Of a stretch of DNA of 4,371 nucleotides, positions 1 through 4,371 are shown one piece after another; positions within the stretch are counted from its first letter, which is position 1; each line of letters begins with the position of its first letter. The DNA is taken from the IMG/VR virus record IMGVR_UViG_2537561992_000028, positions 1 to 4,371 of that record, one strand, 5' to 3'. The stretch is from a virus. Taxonomy: Duplodnaviria; Heunggongvirae; Uroviricota; Caudoviricetes. Made by a program: the position numbers and the translations under genes. Under the pieces are notes generated by a model, which made no database searches, was not told the DNA's origin, and saw nothing but the letters and a program-made list of their open reading frames with translations.

Positions 1-168
1 AACCACACGACCACAGAGACAGCACTGCCCGGCATCCCTGAGCCAGATATGACGCTTGAGGGAAACACGTGCACTGCCACTGACACGACGCTGTTCACCC
101 TTCAGAATATTCACCCGCCGGGTGTTCAGAGTTTTGATTCTGCCCGGTAACGTACGAAGCACAGCCAT
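1..168 (-). CDS. HNH endonuclease-like protein, N-terminal part only (gene runs off the left edge of the window)
   Basis: ATG at 168-166 with GAGGA 6 nt upstream. Translation is MAVLRTLPGRIKTLNTRRVNILKGEQRRVSGSARVSLKRHIWLRDAGQCCLCGRVV..., open to the window edge. The W-x-R-D stretch followed by C-x2-C is the usual start of the zinc-binding core of phage terminase-associated HNH nucleases. Not in the ORF track because it has no stop inside the window. Confidence 0.45.
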   Translation of the reverse strand, partial: MAVLRTLPGRIKTLNTRRVNILKGEQRRVSGSARVSLKRHIWLRDAGQCCLCGRVV

Positions 169-209
169 GTAAAATCCTCTCCATATAGCTTGTCACCAGA
201 GGAAAGAAA

Positions 210-395
210 ATGTCATCGAAAAACCGGACCCGCAGAACCACAATCCGCAATATCCGTTTCCCCAATCACATGATTGAACAGCTCAATATCGCCCTTGAAC
301 ATAAAGGTTCCGGTAACTTTTCAGCGTGGGTTATTGAAGCCTGCAGAAGAAGGCTGTCAACAGAGCGTTCGGGTATGAATTACATAATTAAGTAA
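210..395 (+). CDS. Small ribbon-helix-helix-like (DUF3950/YlcI-like) protein, 61 aa
   Basis: ATG at 210 with GAGGA at 199-203 (6-nt spacer). Basic N-terminus, then a predicted beta-strand (IRNIRFPNHMIEQL) and helix (NIALEHKGSGNFSAWVIEACRRR), the pattern of Arc/CopG-type RHH DNA binders. Diverges from the HNH gene; a similar small protein sits here in DLP12-type prophages (from memory). Confidence 0.5.
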   Translation: MSSKNRTRRTTIRNIRFPNHMIEQLNIALEHKGSGNFSAWVIEACRRRLSTERSGMNYIIK

Positions 396-500
396 CATGG
401 TGTTCACAGAACACACAGTTACCGGACACATCAGTTTTCCATTCGTCCCCCGGCAGTACAGGCTTCCCGTCTGACGGGATAGCCTGAAAAACACAGAAAA

Positions 501-665
501 TTATTTGTTATAATTAATATAACTTAACTCAAAAAAAAGCGACGAGAAAATCAGCATCAACGAGCAATAAGCGCCAATACGTGATAACAAATGGCAGCCA
601 TATTTATCTGCAGTATAAGCAATGGACAGGATAACCACACCAGAAACCGTCAGCATAAAATCCAT
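501..665 (-). CDS. Hypothetical small membrane protein (54 aa, two hydrophobic segments) in an AT-rich island
   Basis: ATG at 665-663 with GGGGAAG about 6 nt upstream. Translation MDFMLTVSGVVILSIAYTADKYGCHLLSRIGAYCSLMLIFSSLFFELSYINYNK. The track's 60-aa version starts at a TTG. AT-rich codons; could be spurious. Confidence 0.2.
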   Translation of the reverse strand: MDFMLTVSGVVILSIAYTADKYGCHLLSRIGAYCSLMLIFSSLFFELSYINYNK

Positions 666-806
666 TTGAACTTCCCCGGACAAAATCGACTCATCTAAAG
701 ATTTACAGCTCTTTTTATTATCAATATGTTAAAAGTAAAATAAACAGATGTTCAATAATACGAATACAAAAACGTGCTGAAAATCAATGAATCCATTTCT
801 GTGTTA

Positions 807-1061
807 TCAATTAATAGTGATAAACATCCGGCTTCTTCCACCATCGCACCGGACCAGCGACCATGAGGGGACAACGCCGCGCTCCGTTAACGCGGTAAAC
901 CCCGGTGTGTATCGTTTTTGATTATCCCCGCACACTCGCGCAGAGGATTCTCCCGGTCGGGCTGCGGTCTCTGTTAATGCAGGAATACGGCGACAATACC
1001 GCGCATGAATAATAAGGTCGCTCAACACACTGGCTGTAATGCAGCGGATACCATGCGGCAT
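807..1061 (-). CDS. Hypothetical ORF (84 aa); no Shine-Dalgarno, possibly a frameshifted continuation of the ORF at 1022-1246 or non-coding
   Basis: Open frame with ATG at 1061 but no SD-like sequence upstream. Overlaps the 3' end of the upstream ORF in a different frame. Arg/Cys-rich, GC-rich translation. Confidence 0.2.
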   Translation of the reverse strand: MPHGIRCITASVLSDLIIHARYCRRIPALTETAARPGESSARVCGDNQKRYTPGFTALTERGVVPSWSLVRCDGGRSRMFITIN

Positions 1062-1246
1062 TTAGCGGCATTCATCGTACACTCAACGGTTAGCTCTTCA
1101 TTCGTGGCATTCACCTGAAAGGTCCGGGAGTGTAATTGCGTACATTTACCACTGAACGAACCTTCAACAAGAACACGACCACGCTGCAAAATACGGAACG
1201 GAATTGTTCCCTGAAAAGGCTTTACGGTTACCAATAATTTCTTCAT
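1022..1246 (-). CDS. Hypothetical protein (74 aa from the ATG) directly downstream of Rz
   Basis: ATG at 1246-1244 with GGAGA 5 nt upstream, 23 nt after the Rz stop. Translation MKKLLVTVKPFQGTIPFRILQRGRVLVEGSFSGKC.... The track's start at 1264 is a TTG. No recognisable family. Confidence 0.35.
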   Translation of the reverse strand: MKKLLVTVKPFQGTIPFRILQRGRVLVEGSFSGKCTQLHSRTFQVNATNEELTVECTMNAAKCRMVSAALQPVC

Positions 1247-1269
1247 GCATTCTCCGAATAACAAAAATA

Positions 1270-1728
1270 CTAGTTAATACACTGAGTGCGGATATATTCC
1301 TGAAGCATTCTCAATGCTGCCTGGTCGCTGATGATTCCGTCTCTGATACCGAGAACGTTTCGTCCAGCAACCGGAGAGAGTTCGACGGCGGCATCATTGC
1401 CCACGCCGGAGGTGCCGGTGGCTTCACGCACGGTACCGGGGCAGGTGGCGTTGATCCGCAGGCGCTTACGACCAGCGGCAACATCAGCACGCAGAGTTTC
1501 ATTTTCAGCTCTCGCATCGGCTAATTCCCTCGAGTATTTTGCATCGAGCGCAGCAACATCGCGCTGGCGCACCTGCATATCAGTAATGGTTGCGTTTGCC
1601 AGATCCAGCTCACTGGCTTTTTTATCGCGCTGCGCTTTGTAGGTGATGGCGTTATCGCGGTAATGATTCAGCCCCAGACTAAGCGCACCACAGACCACCA
1701 GCAGAATAACGGTAAACGCGGAAAGCAT
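1270..1728 (-). CDS. Rz: Rz i-spanin (inner-membrane spanin subunit), 152 aa
   Basis: Translation from ATG 1728: [96 protein letters not shown].... This is near-collinear with lambda Rz as I recall it ([38 protein letters not shown]), with an N-terminal TM segment and a coiled-coil periplasmic domain. The track's 207-aa ORF is an in-frame upstream extension from a TTG with no homology support. Confidence 0.85.
1311..1517 (-). CDS. Rz1: Rz1 o-spanin (outer-membrane lipoprotein spanin subunit), embedded in Rz in the +1 frame
   Basis: [44 protein letters not shown].... Signal peptide with lipobox VSAC and a proline-rich mature part, matching lambda Rz1 (MLKLKMMLCVMMLPLVVVGC...CVKPPPPPAW). Lies wholly inside Rz, the lambda-type embedded arrangement. 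Confidence 0.75.
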
Positions 1729-1739
1729 TCGGTTTATGC

Positions 1740-1871
1740 TCACCCCAGCAGCCCCGACGAAGACAACATCATCCAGCCCATGGAAAGAAAAAGAGCAACC
1801 AGCATTAGTGAAAATGAAATGCCGACGATTACACAGAGGATCTTCGCCAGCATTATGAGTTTGTCTGACAT
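1740..1871 (-). CDS. Hypothetical small hydrophobic protein (43 aa) just upstream of Rz
   Basis: ATG at 1871-1869 with AAGGGG 5 nt upstream; TGA stop at 1742-1740, 11 nt before the Rz ATG. Translation [43 protein letters not shown], one long hydrophobic segment. Below the 60-aa cutoff of the ORF track; found by hand translation. Confidence 0.35.
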
Positions 1872-2041
1872 AGCTACCCCTTAATTGCCACAATTCACTG
1901 GGATACTACCCATAAAAAAGGGATGCTCCAGACCAGCAAAAATTTCCAGTTTGGTAATTGACTAATCATGAGTCGCAACTCCCTAATCAGTTTGCTAAAA
2001 TCAATCAAGGCAGCCTCCCATAGCTTACTGCCATAAACATA

Positions 2042-2078
2042 AAACCCCGTTTGCAACCAACAAACGGGGTTTTTACTT
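2042..2078 (+). terminator. Intrinsic (rho-independent) terminator hairpin in the endolysin-Rz gap
   Basis: Perfect 12-bp stem aaaccccgtttg (2042-2053) / caaacggggttt (2061-2072) with 7-nt loop. Followed on the plus strand by tt-ac-tttt-att, and on the minus strand by a shorter T-run. Looks stronger for rightward transcription but could act both ways. Confidence 0.6.
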
Positions 2079-2163
2079 TTATTCACTTGGGTTTTGCCAG
2101 TTCGCAGGATTTCGTGTTATCTGCCCGCGTTGGCCAACGTCATTTTTAAGCAAAATATTCTGC

Positions 2164-2697
2164 TTATCTGTCGATACCCCAGCACGCCAGCGCACTTTCC
2201 TGATCTCGCCGGGATACCTGACCGTAGCAATTATTTGAGCGGATACGGCAGTCTCTGCCACCGTCCTTAATCCACCAGCGAATCGCTTCGCAGGCACCTT
2301 TTCGATCACCTGCATTAATTCGTTTATAAAACGTCGACGGGAAACACTTACCGGGGCCAATGTTATACGGACAGAATGACGCGATCCCCGCTTTCTGGGG
2401 TTCGGTCAGCGGCACTTTGATGTTTTTCTCCACCCATGCCAGCGCCTTGTCACGTTCGATGGCGTTAACCTGGTCGCATTTTTCCTTCGTCAGTTTCATG
2501 CCAGGAATAACAGGCTTACCATCCACCCGGGTGGCTCCACGGCAGATGGTCCAGATACCCGCACCATCACGGTATGCCGTGGTGTGGTTACCTTCCTTTT
2601 CATCCAGAAACTGGTCGAGGATTTCAGGCGCAGACGCCCCTGCACCAATCAGCGCCAGAACGGCAGCCGACAGGCCGTATTTGATTTTTGCGTTCAT
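2164..2697 (-). CDS. R: SAR endolysin (signal-anchor-release lysozyme, glycoside hydrolase family 24)
   Basis: 177-aa ORF MNAKIKYGLSAAVLALIGAGASAPEILDQFLDEKEGNHTTAYRDGAGIWTICRGAT.... The Gly/Ala-rich weakly hydrophobic N-terminus is a typical SAR domain. The catalytic motif E-x8-D-x5-T (EGNHTTAYRDGAGIWT) is that of T4/P21-type lysozymes. No strong SD upstream. Confidence 0.9.
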   Translation of the reverse strand: MNAKIKYGLSAAVLALIGAGASAPEILDQFLDEKEGNHTTAYRDGAGIWTICRGATRVDGKPVIPGMKLTKEKCDQVNAIERDKALAWVEKNIKVPLTEPQKAGIASFCPYNIGPGKCFPSTFYKRINAGDRKGACEAIRWWIKDGGRDCRIRSNNCYGQVSRRDQESALACWGIDR

Positions 2698-2827
2698 GGA
2701 TATTTATCAGGATTTATCGGTTCCGAATCCCTGGATATGTTAAGCCTTCACCCCACCAGTGGTGGGCACTGGCGGGTTCTTAATTTCCCCGGATGATCGT
2801 GGATTACATTCCACCAGGAGATTACTT

Positions 2828-3460
2828 ATGCTTATCTATCCAGCGGCAGACCTCCGTTTACAGGGACGCAGAGCACAACCATGGGATAAAACAACCACTC
2901 ATAAATATCGTCCCGGTCAATATTATGACTTTCGTAAACACCCGGAACTGATCGAGACACACCTTGAGGATTTTGTTGAATATTCAGACAGACAAGCGAT
3001 TCAGACCTTTTTTTCTTTTGTTAAGTGGATCAACAGCAATTCATCTGCATTCGAGAGCACGGACTGCATGTTTTCAGGAACACCAAAGGTTGATGAATAC
3101 GCCCCGGTATTTGGTTGCACCCATGCGTCATCTGGCCGCTTCGAATTTTTGTTTCGCGATACGAAAATAAACCAAAATGAGCGAGCTGTCGGATGGGTAC
3201 TTAACAAACTATCGCTCTACCTTCAGAAAGAACGGCCCGATTTTTGTAAAGGAACCTTTGGCATCGTTCCCCTCATGACGGAATATACCGACTCCGGCGG
3301 TAACGAGTTCACCGGTTATCGTATTTGTGTCTATTTCGATGCTTACGGGAATGGAACAGAGGATACCTGGACTTCTCTCAACATCATGTTTGATGGCCTC
3401 ATGAAAGCCACCAAAAGAATGAGCAATGAAACAATCACTGGCGAGATGCGTCCCCTTTAA
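2828..3460 (+). CDS. Hypothetical protein of unknown function (210 aa), convergent with the late operon
   Basis: ATG at 2828 with AGGAG at 2816-2820 (7-nt spacer). About 127 codons (2828-3208) not shared with any other long frame. TAA at 3458-3460, followed by a short hairpin and T7 run. The track's 233-aa version starts at a GTG at 2759. No recognisable motif. Confidence 0.45.
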   Translation: MLIYPAADLRLQGRRAQPWDKTTTHKYRPGQYYDFRKHPELIETHLEDFVEYSDRQAIQTFFSFVKWINSNSSAFESTDCMFSGTPKVDEYAPVFGCTHASSGRFEFLFRDTKINQNERAVGWVLNKLSLYLQKERPDFCKGTFGIVPLMTEYTDSGGNEFTGYRICVYFDAYGNGTEDTWTSLNIMFDGLMKATKRMSNETITGEMRPL

Positions 3461-4000
3461 AAAATTATCCAGAATCTCACTATTTGCAGAGCGCTCTCTG
3501 TTTTTTTGAATACGGAAACACTCTGCGAGATTTCTGCTCATCACTTTCCGGCAATAATCGTAAAACGCCGCGAACTGCTCATCACGGCGTTTTTTTTCAC
3601 CTTCGGAAGGGATCTGCACCGACAGTTTTTTATTCAGTTCAACGACGCTGTTCTCCAGTTTTTCAATGCGTGATTCGATATCATCTTTTTCTGACTGTAT
3701 CGTGTTATATGCATTGTTAATTTGTATGGTATACCGCTCTTCTGAACAGAGGCGCTTTTCCGGCAACGGTTCGTTCCCTTCACATAACCCGGCAGCAATA
3801 TCCATGAAAAACTGCTTCGCCTTCTTTTTCGCCTCAGCTTCGTAAAACTCCAGCGGGGCACCTTCAACACGATCAAGATCAATCACCACATTTGGCAACA
3901 ACAGTGACGTATACCCACCAGTTTCCAGCGCCACAGTAACAGTAATCTTATCCGGGTAAATATTTATCCCTTTAACAACCAGTTCGTATTGTTTATTCAT
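3209..4000 (-). CDS. Hypothetical protein of unknown function (263 aa), directly downstream of and translationally coupled to the holin
   Basis: ATG at 4000-3998, 3 nt after the holin TAG, with GGGGAGAG overlapping the last holin codons. About 180 codons (3461-4000) not shared with the plus-strand ORF. Predicted beta-rich N-terminus, central charged helical/coiled-coil stretch (EKDDIESRIEKLENSVVELNKKL), and a C-terminal part that overlaps the convergent ORF. No recognisable catalytic motif. Confidence 0.55.
   Translation of the reverse strand: MNKQYELVVKGINIYPDKITVTVALETGGYTSLLLPNVVIDLDRVEGAPLEFYEAEAKKKAKQFFMDIAAGLCEGNEPLPEKRLCSEERYTIQINNAYNTIQSEKDDIESRIEKLENSVVELNKKLSVQIPSEGEKKRRDEQFAAFYDYCRKVMSRNLAECFRIQKNRERSANSEILDNFLKGTHLASDCFIAHSFGGFHEAIKHDVERSPGILCSIPVSIEIDTNTITGELVTAGVGIFRHEGNDAKGSFTKIGPFFLKVER
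3486..3507 (+). terminator. Weak terminator-like hairpin plus T7 run 3' of the plus-strand ORF (lies inside the minus-strand ORF)
   Basis: cagag (3487-3491) / ctctg (3496-3500) 5-bp stem with 4-nt loop, then ttttttt at 3501-3507, starting 26 nt after the TAA at 3458-3460. Stem is short, so function is uncertain. Confidence 0.3.
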
Positions 4001-4003
4001 CGT

Positions 4004-4210
4004 CTACTCTCCCCGCGCCGCCTTACGACGGTCCTCTCTGATTTTGAAATACAGGTTAGTAAGATACGTCAGCAGGCCAAACAGCAGACTCCCCAGCACA
4101 CCTATCGCCACCCACTGGGACGGAGAGACTTTGTCCAGCAGCTGCAGTAACCAGTATCCCGTCCCCACCGCTGACGTGGTGTATGACACACCTGTTGTGA
4201 TTTTTTCCAT
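4004..4210 (-). CDS. S: Class II holin (pinholin, phage 21 S-like)
   Basis: 68-aa [71 protein letters not shown]. Near-collinear with the phage 21 S holin as I recall it (...[14 protein letters not shown]...[22 protein letters not shown]). Two TM segments; GGAG about 11 nt upstream. Confidence 0.9.
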
Positions 4211-4254
4211 CTGATGTATGTCTCCGTCACCGCCGACAGAAAATGAAAGTAAAG

Positions 4255-4290
4255 AAAAACAAAAAAACCGCCAGTGTCACCCACTGACGG
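4255..4290 (-). terminator. Strong intrinsic terminator upstream of the holin, probably the late-leader terminator (tR' equivalent) read through by Q antitermination
   Basis: Minus-strand stem ccgtcagtg / cactggcgg (9 bp, one G-U pair, 5-nt loop) at 4268-4290, followed by T7-G-T5 (complement of 4255-4267), about 45 nt upstream of the holin ATG. The tR' assignment is by analogy with lambda and phage 82. Confidence 0.6.
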
Positions 4291-4371
4291 CCAACTCCGG
4301 GAGCCGTGATTATGGCATTCAGGCTCTGCTAAAAATGCCAGATAACATTCCGGCCTCCCCTGATTCAGGTT

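Follow-up and report, generated by a model that had tools for sequence, protein, structure and literature searches.

Ribosome profiling (Ribo-seq) of enterohaemorrhagic Escherichia coli (EHEC) has reported XECs191 of O157 Sakai, also EDL933_1392, as a ribosome-protected novel gene for a predicted inner-membrane protein (PMC5597208, PMC4765031), with LB values of 30.0 (transcriptome) and 12.6 (translatome) reads per kilobase per million mapped reads (RPKM), a ribosome coverage value (RCV) of 0.43 and a coverage of 0.55 (PMC5597208). XECs191 is the 933W-type allele of a small open reading frame (ORF) that we analyse here, ORF43, in a window of 4,371 nucleotides, i.e. the whole stretch at positions 1 to 4,371 of the IMG/VR virus record IMGVR_UViG_2537561992_000028. 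ORF43 and a second small frame lie between the endolysin gene and the Rz gene of a lysis cassette in an E. coli prophage. ORF43, directly before Rz, is intact; the frame upstream of it belongs to a 44-45-aa gene of the family phrog_6632, cut short in the window by a nonsense codon. Both genes are real and widespread in Shiga toxin (Stx) prophages, where they are catalogued yet uncharacterised. Lysis timing in Stx phages sets the time and the amount of Shiga toxin and phage release, and the textbook cassette of holin, endolysin and Rz/Rz1 is assumed to be complete.

Small accessory proteins with a single transmembrane domain (TMD) are known from two other phages. Lcc6 of Shewanella phage LambdaSo is needed for pinholin-type lysis, presumably at the pinholin step (bioRxiv 10.1101/2024.01.23.576932). 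It is the best functional precedent for the window genes, likened by description as a small single-TMD phage protein that accompanies a pinholin/signal-arrest-release (SAR) endolysin/spanin system, but it has a 43-aa cytoplasmic tail and its gene lies far from the lysis genes. The Mu releasin gp25 (DUF2730), a 99-aa protein of N-out/C-in orientation with a 73-aa acidic cytoplasmic domain, is likewise a single-TMD accessory protein and is encoded a few genes from the SAR endolysin (PMC9239132). A releasin identity was rejected for the window peptides, which are of 43 and 37-44 aa, have no soluble domain and no match to PF10805 and, in the case of ORF43, have the opposite predicted orientation. 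An i-spanin identity was rejected as well, there being no periplasmic domain and no match to PF03245 or the Rz PHROG; Rz is the adjacent gene, 1728..1270.

Within the cassette itself, the holin at 4210..4004 is of the S21 68/71 dual-start kind. S21 is also a small membrane protein, and the upstream gene resembles it in having two possible in-frame starts with Shine-Dalgarno (SD) sequences, an arrangement kept in the phrog_6632 family, whereas ORF43 is without a dual-start motif. S21 differs in that it spans the membrane twice, ends in a charged tail and has its starts 3 codons apart; the upstream gene encodes one TMD and no charged tail, and its starts are 13 codons apart. The charged cytoplasmic C-terminal tail of holins is lacking in both peptides, ORF43 being uncharged after position 10 and the upstream protein ending in KG (RWW in relatives), and neither matches the holin family models of Pfam, PHROG or NCBIfam.

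ORF43 and its position before Rz

The features of ORF43 in the window are the following:

1740..1871, minus strand: ORF43, an intact 43-aa gene, stop included (ATG 1871-1869, TGA 1742-1740; phrog_4906, WP_001280927.1)
1877..1882, minus strand: ORF43 SD, AAGGGG, 5 nt before the ATG

Both small frames sit in the 435 bp that part the endolysin stop from the Rz start. A first-pass annotation of the window, made by a model from the sequence alone, had described a 43-aa frame at 1871-1740 with an AAGGGG SD, ending 11 nt (1739-1729) before the Rz ATG at 1728, and all of these elements were reproduced on the minus strand. ORF43 is a genuine, intact gene that is already catalogued in RefSeq, in PHROGs and in the EHEC Ribo-seq list. 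It matches the uncharacterised family phrog_4906 with E = 3.1e-21, residues 1-43 aligning to profile positions 7-49 of 49, and it corresponds to the RefSeq hypothetical protein WP_001280927.1 in identical prophages of O26, O103, O121 and O145 strains. A search of 5.8 billion proteins returned 119 relatives, mostly of exactly 43 aa, of which every named one is from E. coli. When the ORF43 alignment was used as a profile against 1.8 billion representative proteins, the 27 matches belonged to the same narrow family and no distant relatives were found, so that there is none from which a function could be borrowed.

At the nucleotide level, blastn delimits a block (query 293-424) that runs exactly from the ORF43 ATG to its stop and is 78-80% identical in 933W, VT2-Sakai and more than 100 other Stx phages; the sequence flanking it in those phages is unrelated to the window. 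The homologue is annotated as hypothetical in VT2phi_272, P13374 (ORF53) and PhiR12_1, and is unannotated in 933W, where it lies between ant and Rz. The 435-bp region, chiefly through ORF43, is matched in part by 2,170 of 5,426 complete E. coli genomes, at up to 22 places per genome. XECs191/EDL933_1392 and the 933W ORF between ant and Rz (peptide MGWLMISDKLITLVKSLCVLVGISFLVMLVAIFFSTAWRVLTLSGLVG) are of the same family as ORF43, share 78-80% DNA identity with it and also stand directly before Rz; they differ in that they open with ATA, the nearest ATG codons lying upstream of it, and in that the neighbouring gene is ant instead of the phrog_6632 gene. A literature search with the peptide strings and accessions returned no paper except the supplements of the two EHEC Ribo-seq papers, which hold the 933W-type allele.

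ORF43 was found in lysis cassettes only among the 173 loci sampled, with an R21-like endolysin upstream and Rz downstream in 165 of them. Its stop is separated from the Rz start by 11 nt in 85 loci and by 7 nt in 4 loci; in a further 81 loci, which we call L092-type, 218 nt are inserted between ORF43 and Rz, and ORF43 is still intact. In this L092 arrangement (1888-2141; E. coli 81009 and 80 IMG/VR loci) the C-terminal remnant of a 60-aa gene lies between ORF43 and Rz, together with a 28-aa ORF, MSAELIRAMAFAIRIVAIAVLVWAIRWW, which weakly matches phrog_4493 and whose stop abuts the Rz ATG. A divergent, 44-aa homologue of ORF43 was seen in E. coli RM13745 (L088, 1511-1832), in a cassette with a GH108 endolysin; 4 nt after it, where Rz would be expected, stands a 60-aa predicted lipoprotein (phrog_7528).

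The reading frame is conserved. All 17 distinct nucleotide alleles from 94 loci are intact, with 43-44 codons, and the summed ratio of non-synonymous to synonymous substitution rates (dN/dS) is 0.40 in frame vs 0.91 and 1.12 in the other two sense frames. For distant pairs dN/dS ranges from 0.26 to 0.48, with Fisher p values from 0.0004 (most distant pair) to 0.08. Ten residues (K4, S19, F20, S21, M23, L24, V25, S30, W33 and L36) are identical throughout a set of 21 variants. Residues 11-43, a stretch of 33, are uncharged and the N-terminus carries two Lys and one Asp, which by the positive-inside rule suggests an N-in/C-out orientation. An AlphaFold model based on the family alignment consists of one helix, residues 2-38, with a predicted local distance difference test (pLDDT) score of 88.9. 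The suggestion that the lysis cassette holds small membrane peptides is thus borne out for ORF43 by the uncharged stretch, the single modelled helix and, in 165 of 173 loci, a place flanked by the SAR endolysin and Rz genes.

A nonsense allele of phrog_6632 and its leader

The upstream frame and its surroundings comprise the following elements:

1895..2008, minus strand: nonsense-truncated allele of the phrog_6632 family (TTG start 2008, 37 codons, premature TGA 1897-1895)
1895..1969, minus strand: 24-aa ORF, stop included, i.e. the reading of the same frame from an internal ATG, Met14 (ATG 1969-1967, last codon 1900-1898)
1979..1984, minus strand: internal SD-like AGGGAG, 9 nt before ATG 1969
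2014..2019, minus strand: SD GGGAGG of the TTG 2008 start
1874..1894, minus strand: orphaned 3' end of the ancestral gene, past the premature stop (LIVAIKG codons and TAG 1876-1874)
2041..2073, scored as bidirectional: HP1, a GC-rich terminator-like hairpin, 33 nt upstream of TTG 2008
2009..2040, minus strand: leader from HP1 to the start, equivalent of the second hairpin (HP2), where RNAfold predicts pairing between the SD region and the U-rich tail of HP1
1865..1894, plus strand: weak promoter-like site from a consensus scan, CTGACA-18-CACAAT with TG

The 24-aa ORF with an AGGGAG SD had been described as a second short hydrophobic ORF. Its coordinates and SD are exact, but it is not a gene of its own: it is the internal-ATG part of a truncated 44-45-aa phrog_6632 gene. 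The window frame matches phrog_6632, also uncharacterised, with E = 3.1e-11, and the full-length E. coli form does so with E = 1.4e-13 over profile positions 1-43 of 45. Protein searches found 44-45-aa homologues in Enterobacter, Citrobacter, Klebsiella, Providencia and Salmonella, and a scan of species-representative genomes yielded only 4 extra loci, adding the genera Brenneria, Symbiopectobacterium and Dryocola. Full-length homologues begin with M/V-(I/V)DFSKLI, and those of six other genera with M/V-IDFSKLIREL at the position of TTG 2008, where they use GTG or ATG. The family start therefore corresponds to TTG 2008, since the full-length homologues begin at that residue and the alignment to the phrog_6632 profile opens at its position 1. 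In Dryocola the N-terminus is of another sequence, and the L093/P0135 alleles, of 31 aa, start near Met14 without the N-terminal extension. Across genera the ratio of non-synonymous to synonymous differences per site (pN/pS) is 0.17-0.46 in frame vs about 0.6-2.4 in the other frames, with Fisher p down to 3e-7. A check of reading-frame conservation in relatives, which the first-pass annotation had proposed, accordingly finds both small frames conserved with a synonymous excess.

The premature stop is peculiar to few copies. Where the window has TGA (1897-1895), the L092 locus (94% identity) and the O111 prophage L093 have TTA, and such relatives run on through LIVAIKG to a TAG 2 nt before the ORF43 ATG, which places the ORF43 SD inside their last codons (AAG GGG). 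Exact contexts in IMG/VR hold the TTA allele in 86 contigs and the TGA allele in 4, and 80 loci encode the whole 31-aa C-terminal part unchanged. The window copy falls short of the intact form, i.e. 44-45 aa with a whole membrane helix: its product would be of 37 aa (from TTG) or 24 aa (from the internal ATG) instead of 44 or 31 aa. Without the seven helix residues LIVAIKG, hydropathy over the best stretch of 19 residues is 1.21 instead of 2.19, so that a stable membrane helix is doubtful, and the window copy is probably an inactive, dead allele. RefSeq annotation of the frame 1895-2086 (minus strand) is inconsistent, being absent in some identical genomes and of 63 or 24 aa elsewhere. The 63-aa model, WP_001443546.1, starts at GTG 2086 and passes through the hairpin; cross-genus comparison gives it no support and it is probably over-extended. 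The 24-aa model, ECO103_1198 of O103:H2 12009, is a fragment.

Full-length phrog_6632 genes (Enterobacter P0131, Citrobacter P0129, Klebsiella P0133 and E. coli SMN013SH2 WP_000459345.1) share with the window frame the IDFSKLIRELRxM N-terminus, the WKFLLIW helix, the upstream hairpin and the internal SD plus ATG. They differ from the window copy, which stops at codon 38, in being 44-45 aa long and ending in AIKG or RWW, and several lie outside lysis cassettes. In Enterobacter the phrog_6632 cassette is found between a GH19 endolysin gene and the spanin genes, and in the SMN013SH2 prophage, which is close to the window, a 45-aa phrog_6632 gene stands 1 nt before Rz, without ORF43. In Citrobacter the gene is in the tail module, beside a lipoprotein moron gene and with its own downstream terminator; in Klebsiella it is in the baseplate module, and in Brenneria and Symbiopectobacterium it follows a 777-aa gene. 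The cargo of the endolysin-Rz gap is itself interchangeable and includes ant, the 44/45-aa gene, a 60-aa gene (phrog_1115), the 28-aa gene and ORF43.

A terminator-like hairpin precedes the phrog_6632 start by about 33-40 nt in every context examined, with stem sequences that differ between contexts. In the window, HP1 (2073..2041) has a folding free energy (dG) of -22.8 kcal/mol and z = -5.15, and in an RNAalifold analysis of 11 leaders 6 of its 12 base pairs are preserved although both partners have changed. For HP2, relatives show compensatory differences (UUCU/AGAA vs UUCC/GGAA and CCUUG/CAAGG vs CGUUA/UAACG), a covariation read by eye, the gap placement by MAFFT being inconsistent. In O157-type prophages the same two-hairpin leader stands before the 60-aa gene (phrog_1115), which is unrelated. 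In our locus numbering it recurs, with covarying stems, in L175, L178, L179, L181-L183, L007, L088, L090 and L091, which span several genera and contexts.

The first 12 phrog_6632 codons are near-invariant at the nucleotide level across genera, pS being 0.6-0.8 in the remainder. This stretch of about 36 nt (window 2006-1970) was seen in E. coli, Enterobacter, Citrobacter, Klebsiella, Providencia and Brenneria, and diverges on both flanks; it suggests RNA-level constraint, which may act on the internal SD, on a small GCAA..UUGC stem or on an RNA target site. All 8 sequences compared retain Met14 together with a purine-rich motif that precedes it by 9 nt. The motif reads AGG/CGG GAG in seven of them and CAG GGG in Symbiopectobacterium, where both Arg and Glu are changed and the purine run survives. 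A second, internal start in the family is plausible because Met14 and the purine motif are always kept and alleles that begin near Met14 exist.

Consensus scanning, of limited sensitivity, of the minus strand from 2163 to 1729 found nothing that resembles a sigma-70 promoter. An antisense RNA running from the plus-strand site at 1865..1894 to the HP1 terminator would be about 175 nt long and would cover the truncated gene; promoter scans of Enterobacter, Citrobacter and Klebsiella found no consistent counterpart of that site. Rfam, searched with the whole window at E up to 1, returned only a sub-threshold match to VR-RNA (20 bits vs a threshold of 100), and thus no known small RNA (sRNA) or antitoxin RNA is present.

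Proposed role and rival explanations

We lean, by a narrow balance of probability, towards reading the endolysin-Rz gap as an accessory slot of the phage-21-type cassette that holds genes for two tiny single-pass inner-membrane proteins with an accessory part in lysis. Each protein would consist of a short charged N-terminus, predicted to be cytoplasmic, and one helix, with almost nothing outside the membrane. ORF43 would be translated from its own SD, packed 11 nt from Rz, and the upstream 44-45-aa gene would move between phages of Enterobacterales as a cassette made up of terminator-like hairpin, SD-covering hairpin and ORF. The scan yielded no promoter on the coding strand, so that transcription of either gene is presumed to come from the late lysis operon alone, a Q-modified polymerase reading through the hairpin. 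Neither gene would be core to lysis, 933W being without the upstream gene and the Qin prophage of K-12 without both. As to what the proteins do, our best guess, tentative and more apt to prove wrong than right, is that they modulate envelope disruption through helix-helix contacts in the inner membrane, with the pinholin, the SAR anchor of the endolysin and the Rz anchor as possible partners; it is based on position and on the Lcc6 precedent. If they do modulate the pinholin, SAR-endolysin release or the spanin, bare-helix proteins would be a missing regulatory layer; if they are idle in lysis, they offer a clean case of tiny membrane genes colonising phage late operons. In either case the window contributes an intact member of phrog_4906 and a nonsense allele of phrog_6632.

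A number of results weigh against this proposal. Profile searches of PHROG, Pfam, NCBIfam and PDB gave no sequence link of either protein to holin, antiholin, releasin or spanin families, such as would bear out the antiholin-like or holin-modulating part that the first-pass annotation gave as possible; more generally, neither peptide had a match in Pfam, NCBIfam, PADLOC or PDB profile searches, and hhalign finds the phrog_4906-type and phrog_6632-type families unrelated to each other. The loci sampled, the set of 173 included, are redundant and were selected by similarity. The close SMN013SH2 prophage has the 45-aa gene alone and no ORF43 before Rz. The Ribo-seq signal of XECs191 is low and comes from uninduced cultures (PMC5597208), and substitution ratios cannot tell ORF43 from the wobble-aligned antisense frame. 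Finally, the presence of phrog_6632 in tail and baseplate modules, near unrelated genes, argues against a lysis-specific role and favours a general membrane or moron-type role for this family.

The last point leads to the view that both genes are morons, i.e. small membrane proteins that benefit the lysogen or act in phage competition (e.g. superinfection exclusion), the endolysin-Rz gap being merely tolerant of insertions. This we consider unlikely, though with a real minority chance. It would account for phrog_6632 as a self-contained unit in such unrelated places as the Citrobacter tail module, the Klebsiella baseplate module and the site after the 777-aa gene of Brenneria and Symbiopectobacterium, for the interchangeable cargo of the gap, and for XECs191 footprints without induction, although footprints from an uninduced culture may stem from spontaneously induced cells. 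A moron would be expected to have a promoter and a terminator of its own and to be expressed from the repressed prophage. Against this account, the scan found no sigma-70 promoter-like site on the coding strand from the endolysin stop to Rz, the hairpin is upstream of the gene and not downstream, ORF43 is seen in lysis cassettes only, and PADLOC gave no matches. That ORF43 serves as a coupling ORF, whose translation delivers ribosomes to an Rz gene parted from the endolysin gene by insertions, the peptide itself mattering little, is improbable. The spacing of 7-11 nt would suit it, as would the conserved last codons and stop (GGG GTG A), which resemble an SD and precede the Rz ATG by 7-10 nt, and the direct overlap of endolysin and Rz genes in λ-type layouts such as K-12 Qin; but the constraint is on amino acids, as seen in the ten invariant residues and the synonymous excess, and ORF43 is intact in the 81 L092-type loci despite 218 nt to Rz.

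The idea of a type I toxin, raised by the first-pass annotation, fared poorly. In this account the upstream gene encodes a toxic membrane peptide that is checked by its SD-sequestering leader and possibly by a cis-antisense RNA running from 1865-1894 to the bidirectional hairpin, and we rate it as very improbable. Like Hok, TisB, Ibs, Ldr and ZorO, toxins whose mRNA leaders hide the SD, the window genes specify small hydrophobic peptides. The conserved two-hairpin leader is predicted to cover the SD of the upstream gene, a plus-strand promoter-like site faces a terminator scored on the plus strand at 2041-2073, and the opening 36 nt of the ORF hardly vary between genera, pS in the remainder being 0.6-0.8. 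Unlike the type I toxins, however, the window genes are co-directional inside a phage late operon, have no antisense RNA or sRNA known to Rfam, and gave, in a promoter scan of limited sensitivity, no independent transcription unit for the peptide mRNA. Moreover, the antisense promoter-like site is inconsistent in Enterobacter, Citrobacter and Klebsiella, and the U-tract is better conserved on the sense side. A nonsense allele that has spread with the rest of the cassette retained is neutral for the idea.

The remaining account, that the frames are chance ORFs or that the conservation belongs to the opposite strand, is scarcely credible. A 73-aa ORF at 1663-1884 on the plus strand lies opposite ORF43 and the Rz start and is open in all alleles checked, and its wobble-aligned frame has a pN/pS close to that of the sense frame (0.53 vs 0.45). 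Open antisense frames are expected opposite ORFs rich in Leu, Ile and Val. This 73-aa ORF is most likely a shadow frame of the hydrophobic sense ORF, because the SD and ATG lie at the 5' edge of the conserved block, which ends at the ORF43 stop, because the hydrophobic helix profile of the sense frame suits a membrane protein, because the sense orientation is that of the late operon, and because the XECs191 peptide, reported as ribosome-protected, is the sense one. For both small genes a chance origin, which had been among the options first offered, was discarded in view of conserved families, purifying selection and, for ORF43, a ribosome-protected homologue.

Returning to the accessory slot, two newer leads may extend it: a portable, hairpin-gated and possibly dual-start cassette, and a slot of bare-helix proteins in Stx-phage lysis cassettes. 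Joined, they would give the lambdoid and Stx prophages of E. coli an unrecognised class of bare-helix lysis regulators, housed in the gap. From inside the membrane ORF43 would adjust either the pinholin or the Rz anchor; phrog_6632, with its two starts, would supply an effector and an inhibitor (44/31 aa), their translation controlled by a terminator hairpin of which the U-tail conceals the SD; and together they would form a portable timing module swapped between lysis and other late modules. We give this combined reading a small chance.

Lysis cassette and mosaic context of the window

Profile searches with Pfam, PHROG and NCBIfam place a phage-21-type lysis cassette on the minus strand of the window, which also holds a DUF1327 gene within the cassette and more prophage genes besides. 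Its principal genes are:

4004..4210, minus strand: class II holin (PF04971, 8.8e-33)
2164..2697, minus strand: R21-like endolysin (PF00959, phrog_7), the upstream neighbour of the small frames, with a hydrophobic N-terminal segment
1270..1728, minus strand: Rz i-spanin gene (PF03245, 9e-40; phrog_13), with Rz1 embedded at 1311-1517

The endolysin we take to be of the SAR type, from its N-terminus MNAKIKYGLSAAVLALIGAGASAP and from the general nature of R21. In K-12 Qin, rrrQ and rzpQ overlap directly in the λ-type arrangement, leaving no gap, and no homologue of ORF43 or of the phrog_6632 gene was found at that locus; K-12 initiation-profiling data sets are therefore unusable for these genes.

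The window is a mosaic of known modules. As a contiguous whole it is in no complete E. coli RefSeq genome, the best match having 84% coverage and 97.6% identity, and its parts are matched at 100% identity by different prophages within the same strains. On its minus strand, a further short hydrophobic ORF at 501-665, MDFMLTVSGVVILSIAYTADKYGCHLLSRIGAYCSLMLIFSSLFFELSYINYNK, matched no family in PHROG, Pfam or NCBIfam, and related genomes have a 46-aa hypothetical protein, WP_000347013.1, annotated there. Between holin and endolysin, a 210-aa ORF runs on the plus strand (2828-3460), with a terminator-like site of its own at 3486-3501 (plus strand) and no match in Pfam, PHROG, NCBIfam or PADLOC. 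It lies on an 801-bp stretch that a different prophage, in strain E2865, matches at 100% identity, and looks like a reverse-oriented moron. The DUF1327 ORF (3209-4000, minus strand) has 263 aa, of which family models reach only residues 1 to about 170; the 3' third overlaps the 210-aa ORF by about 250 nt, and the DUF1327 ORF was probably extended or fused by insertion.

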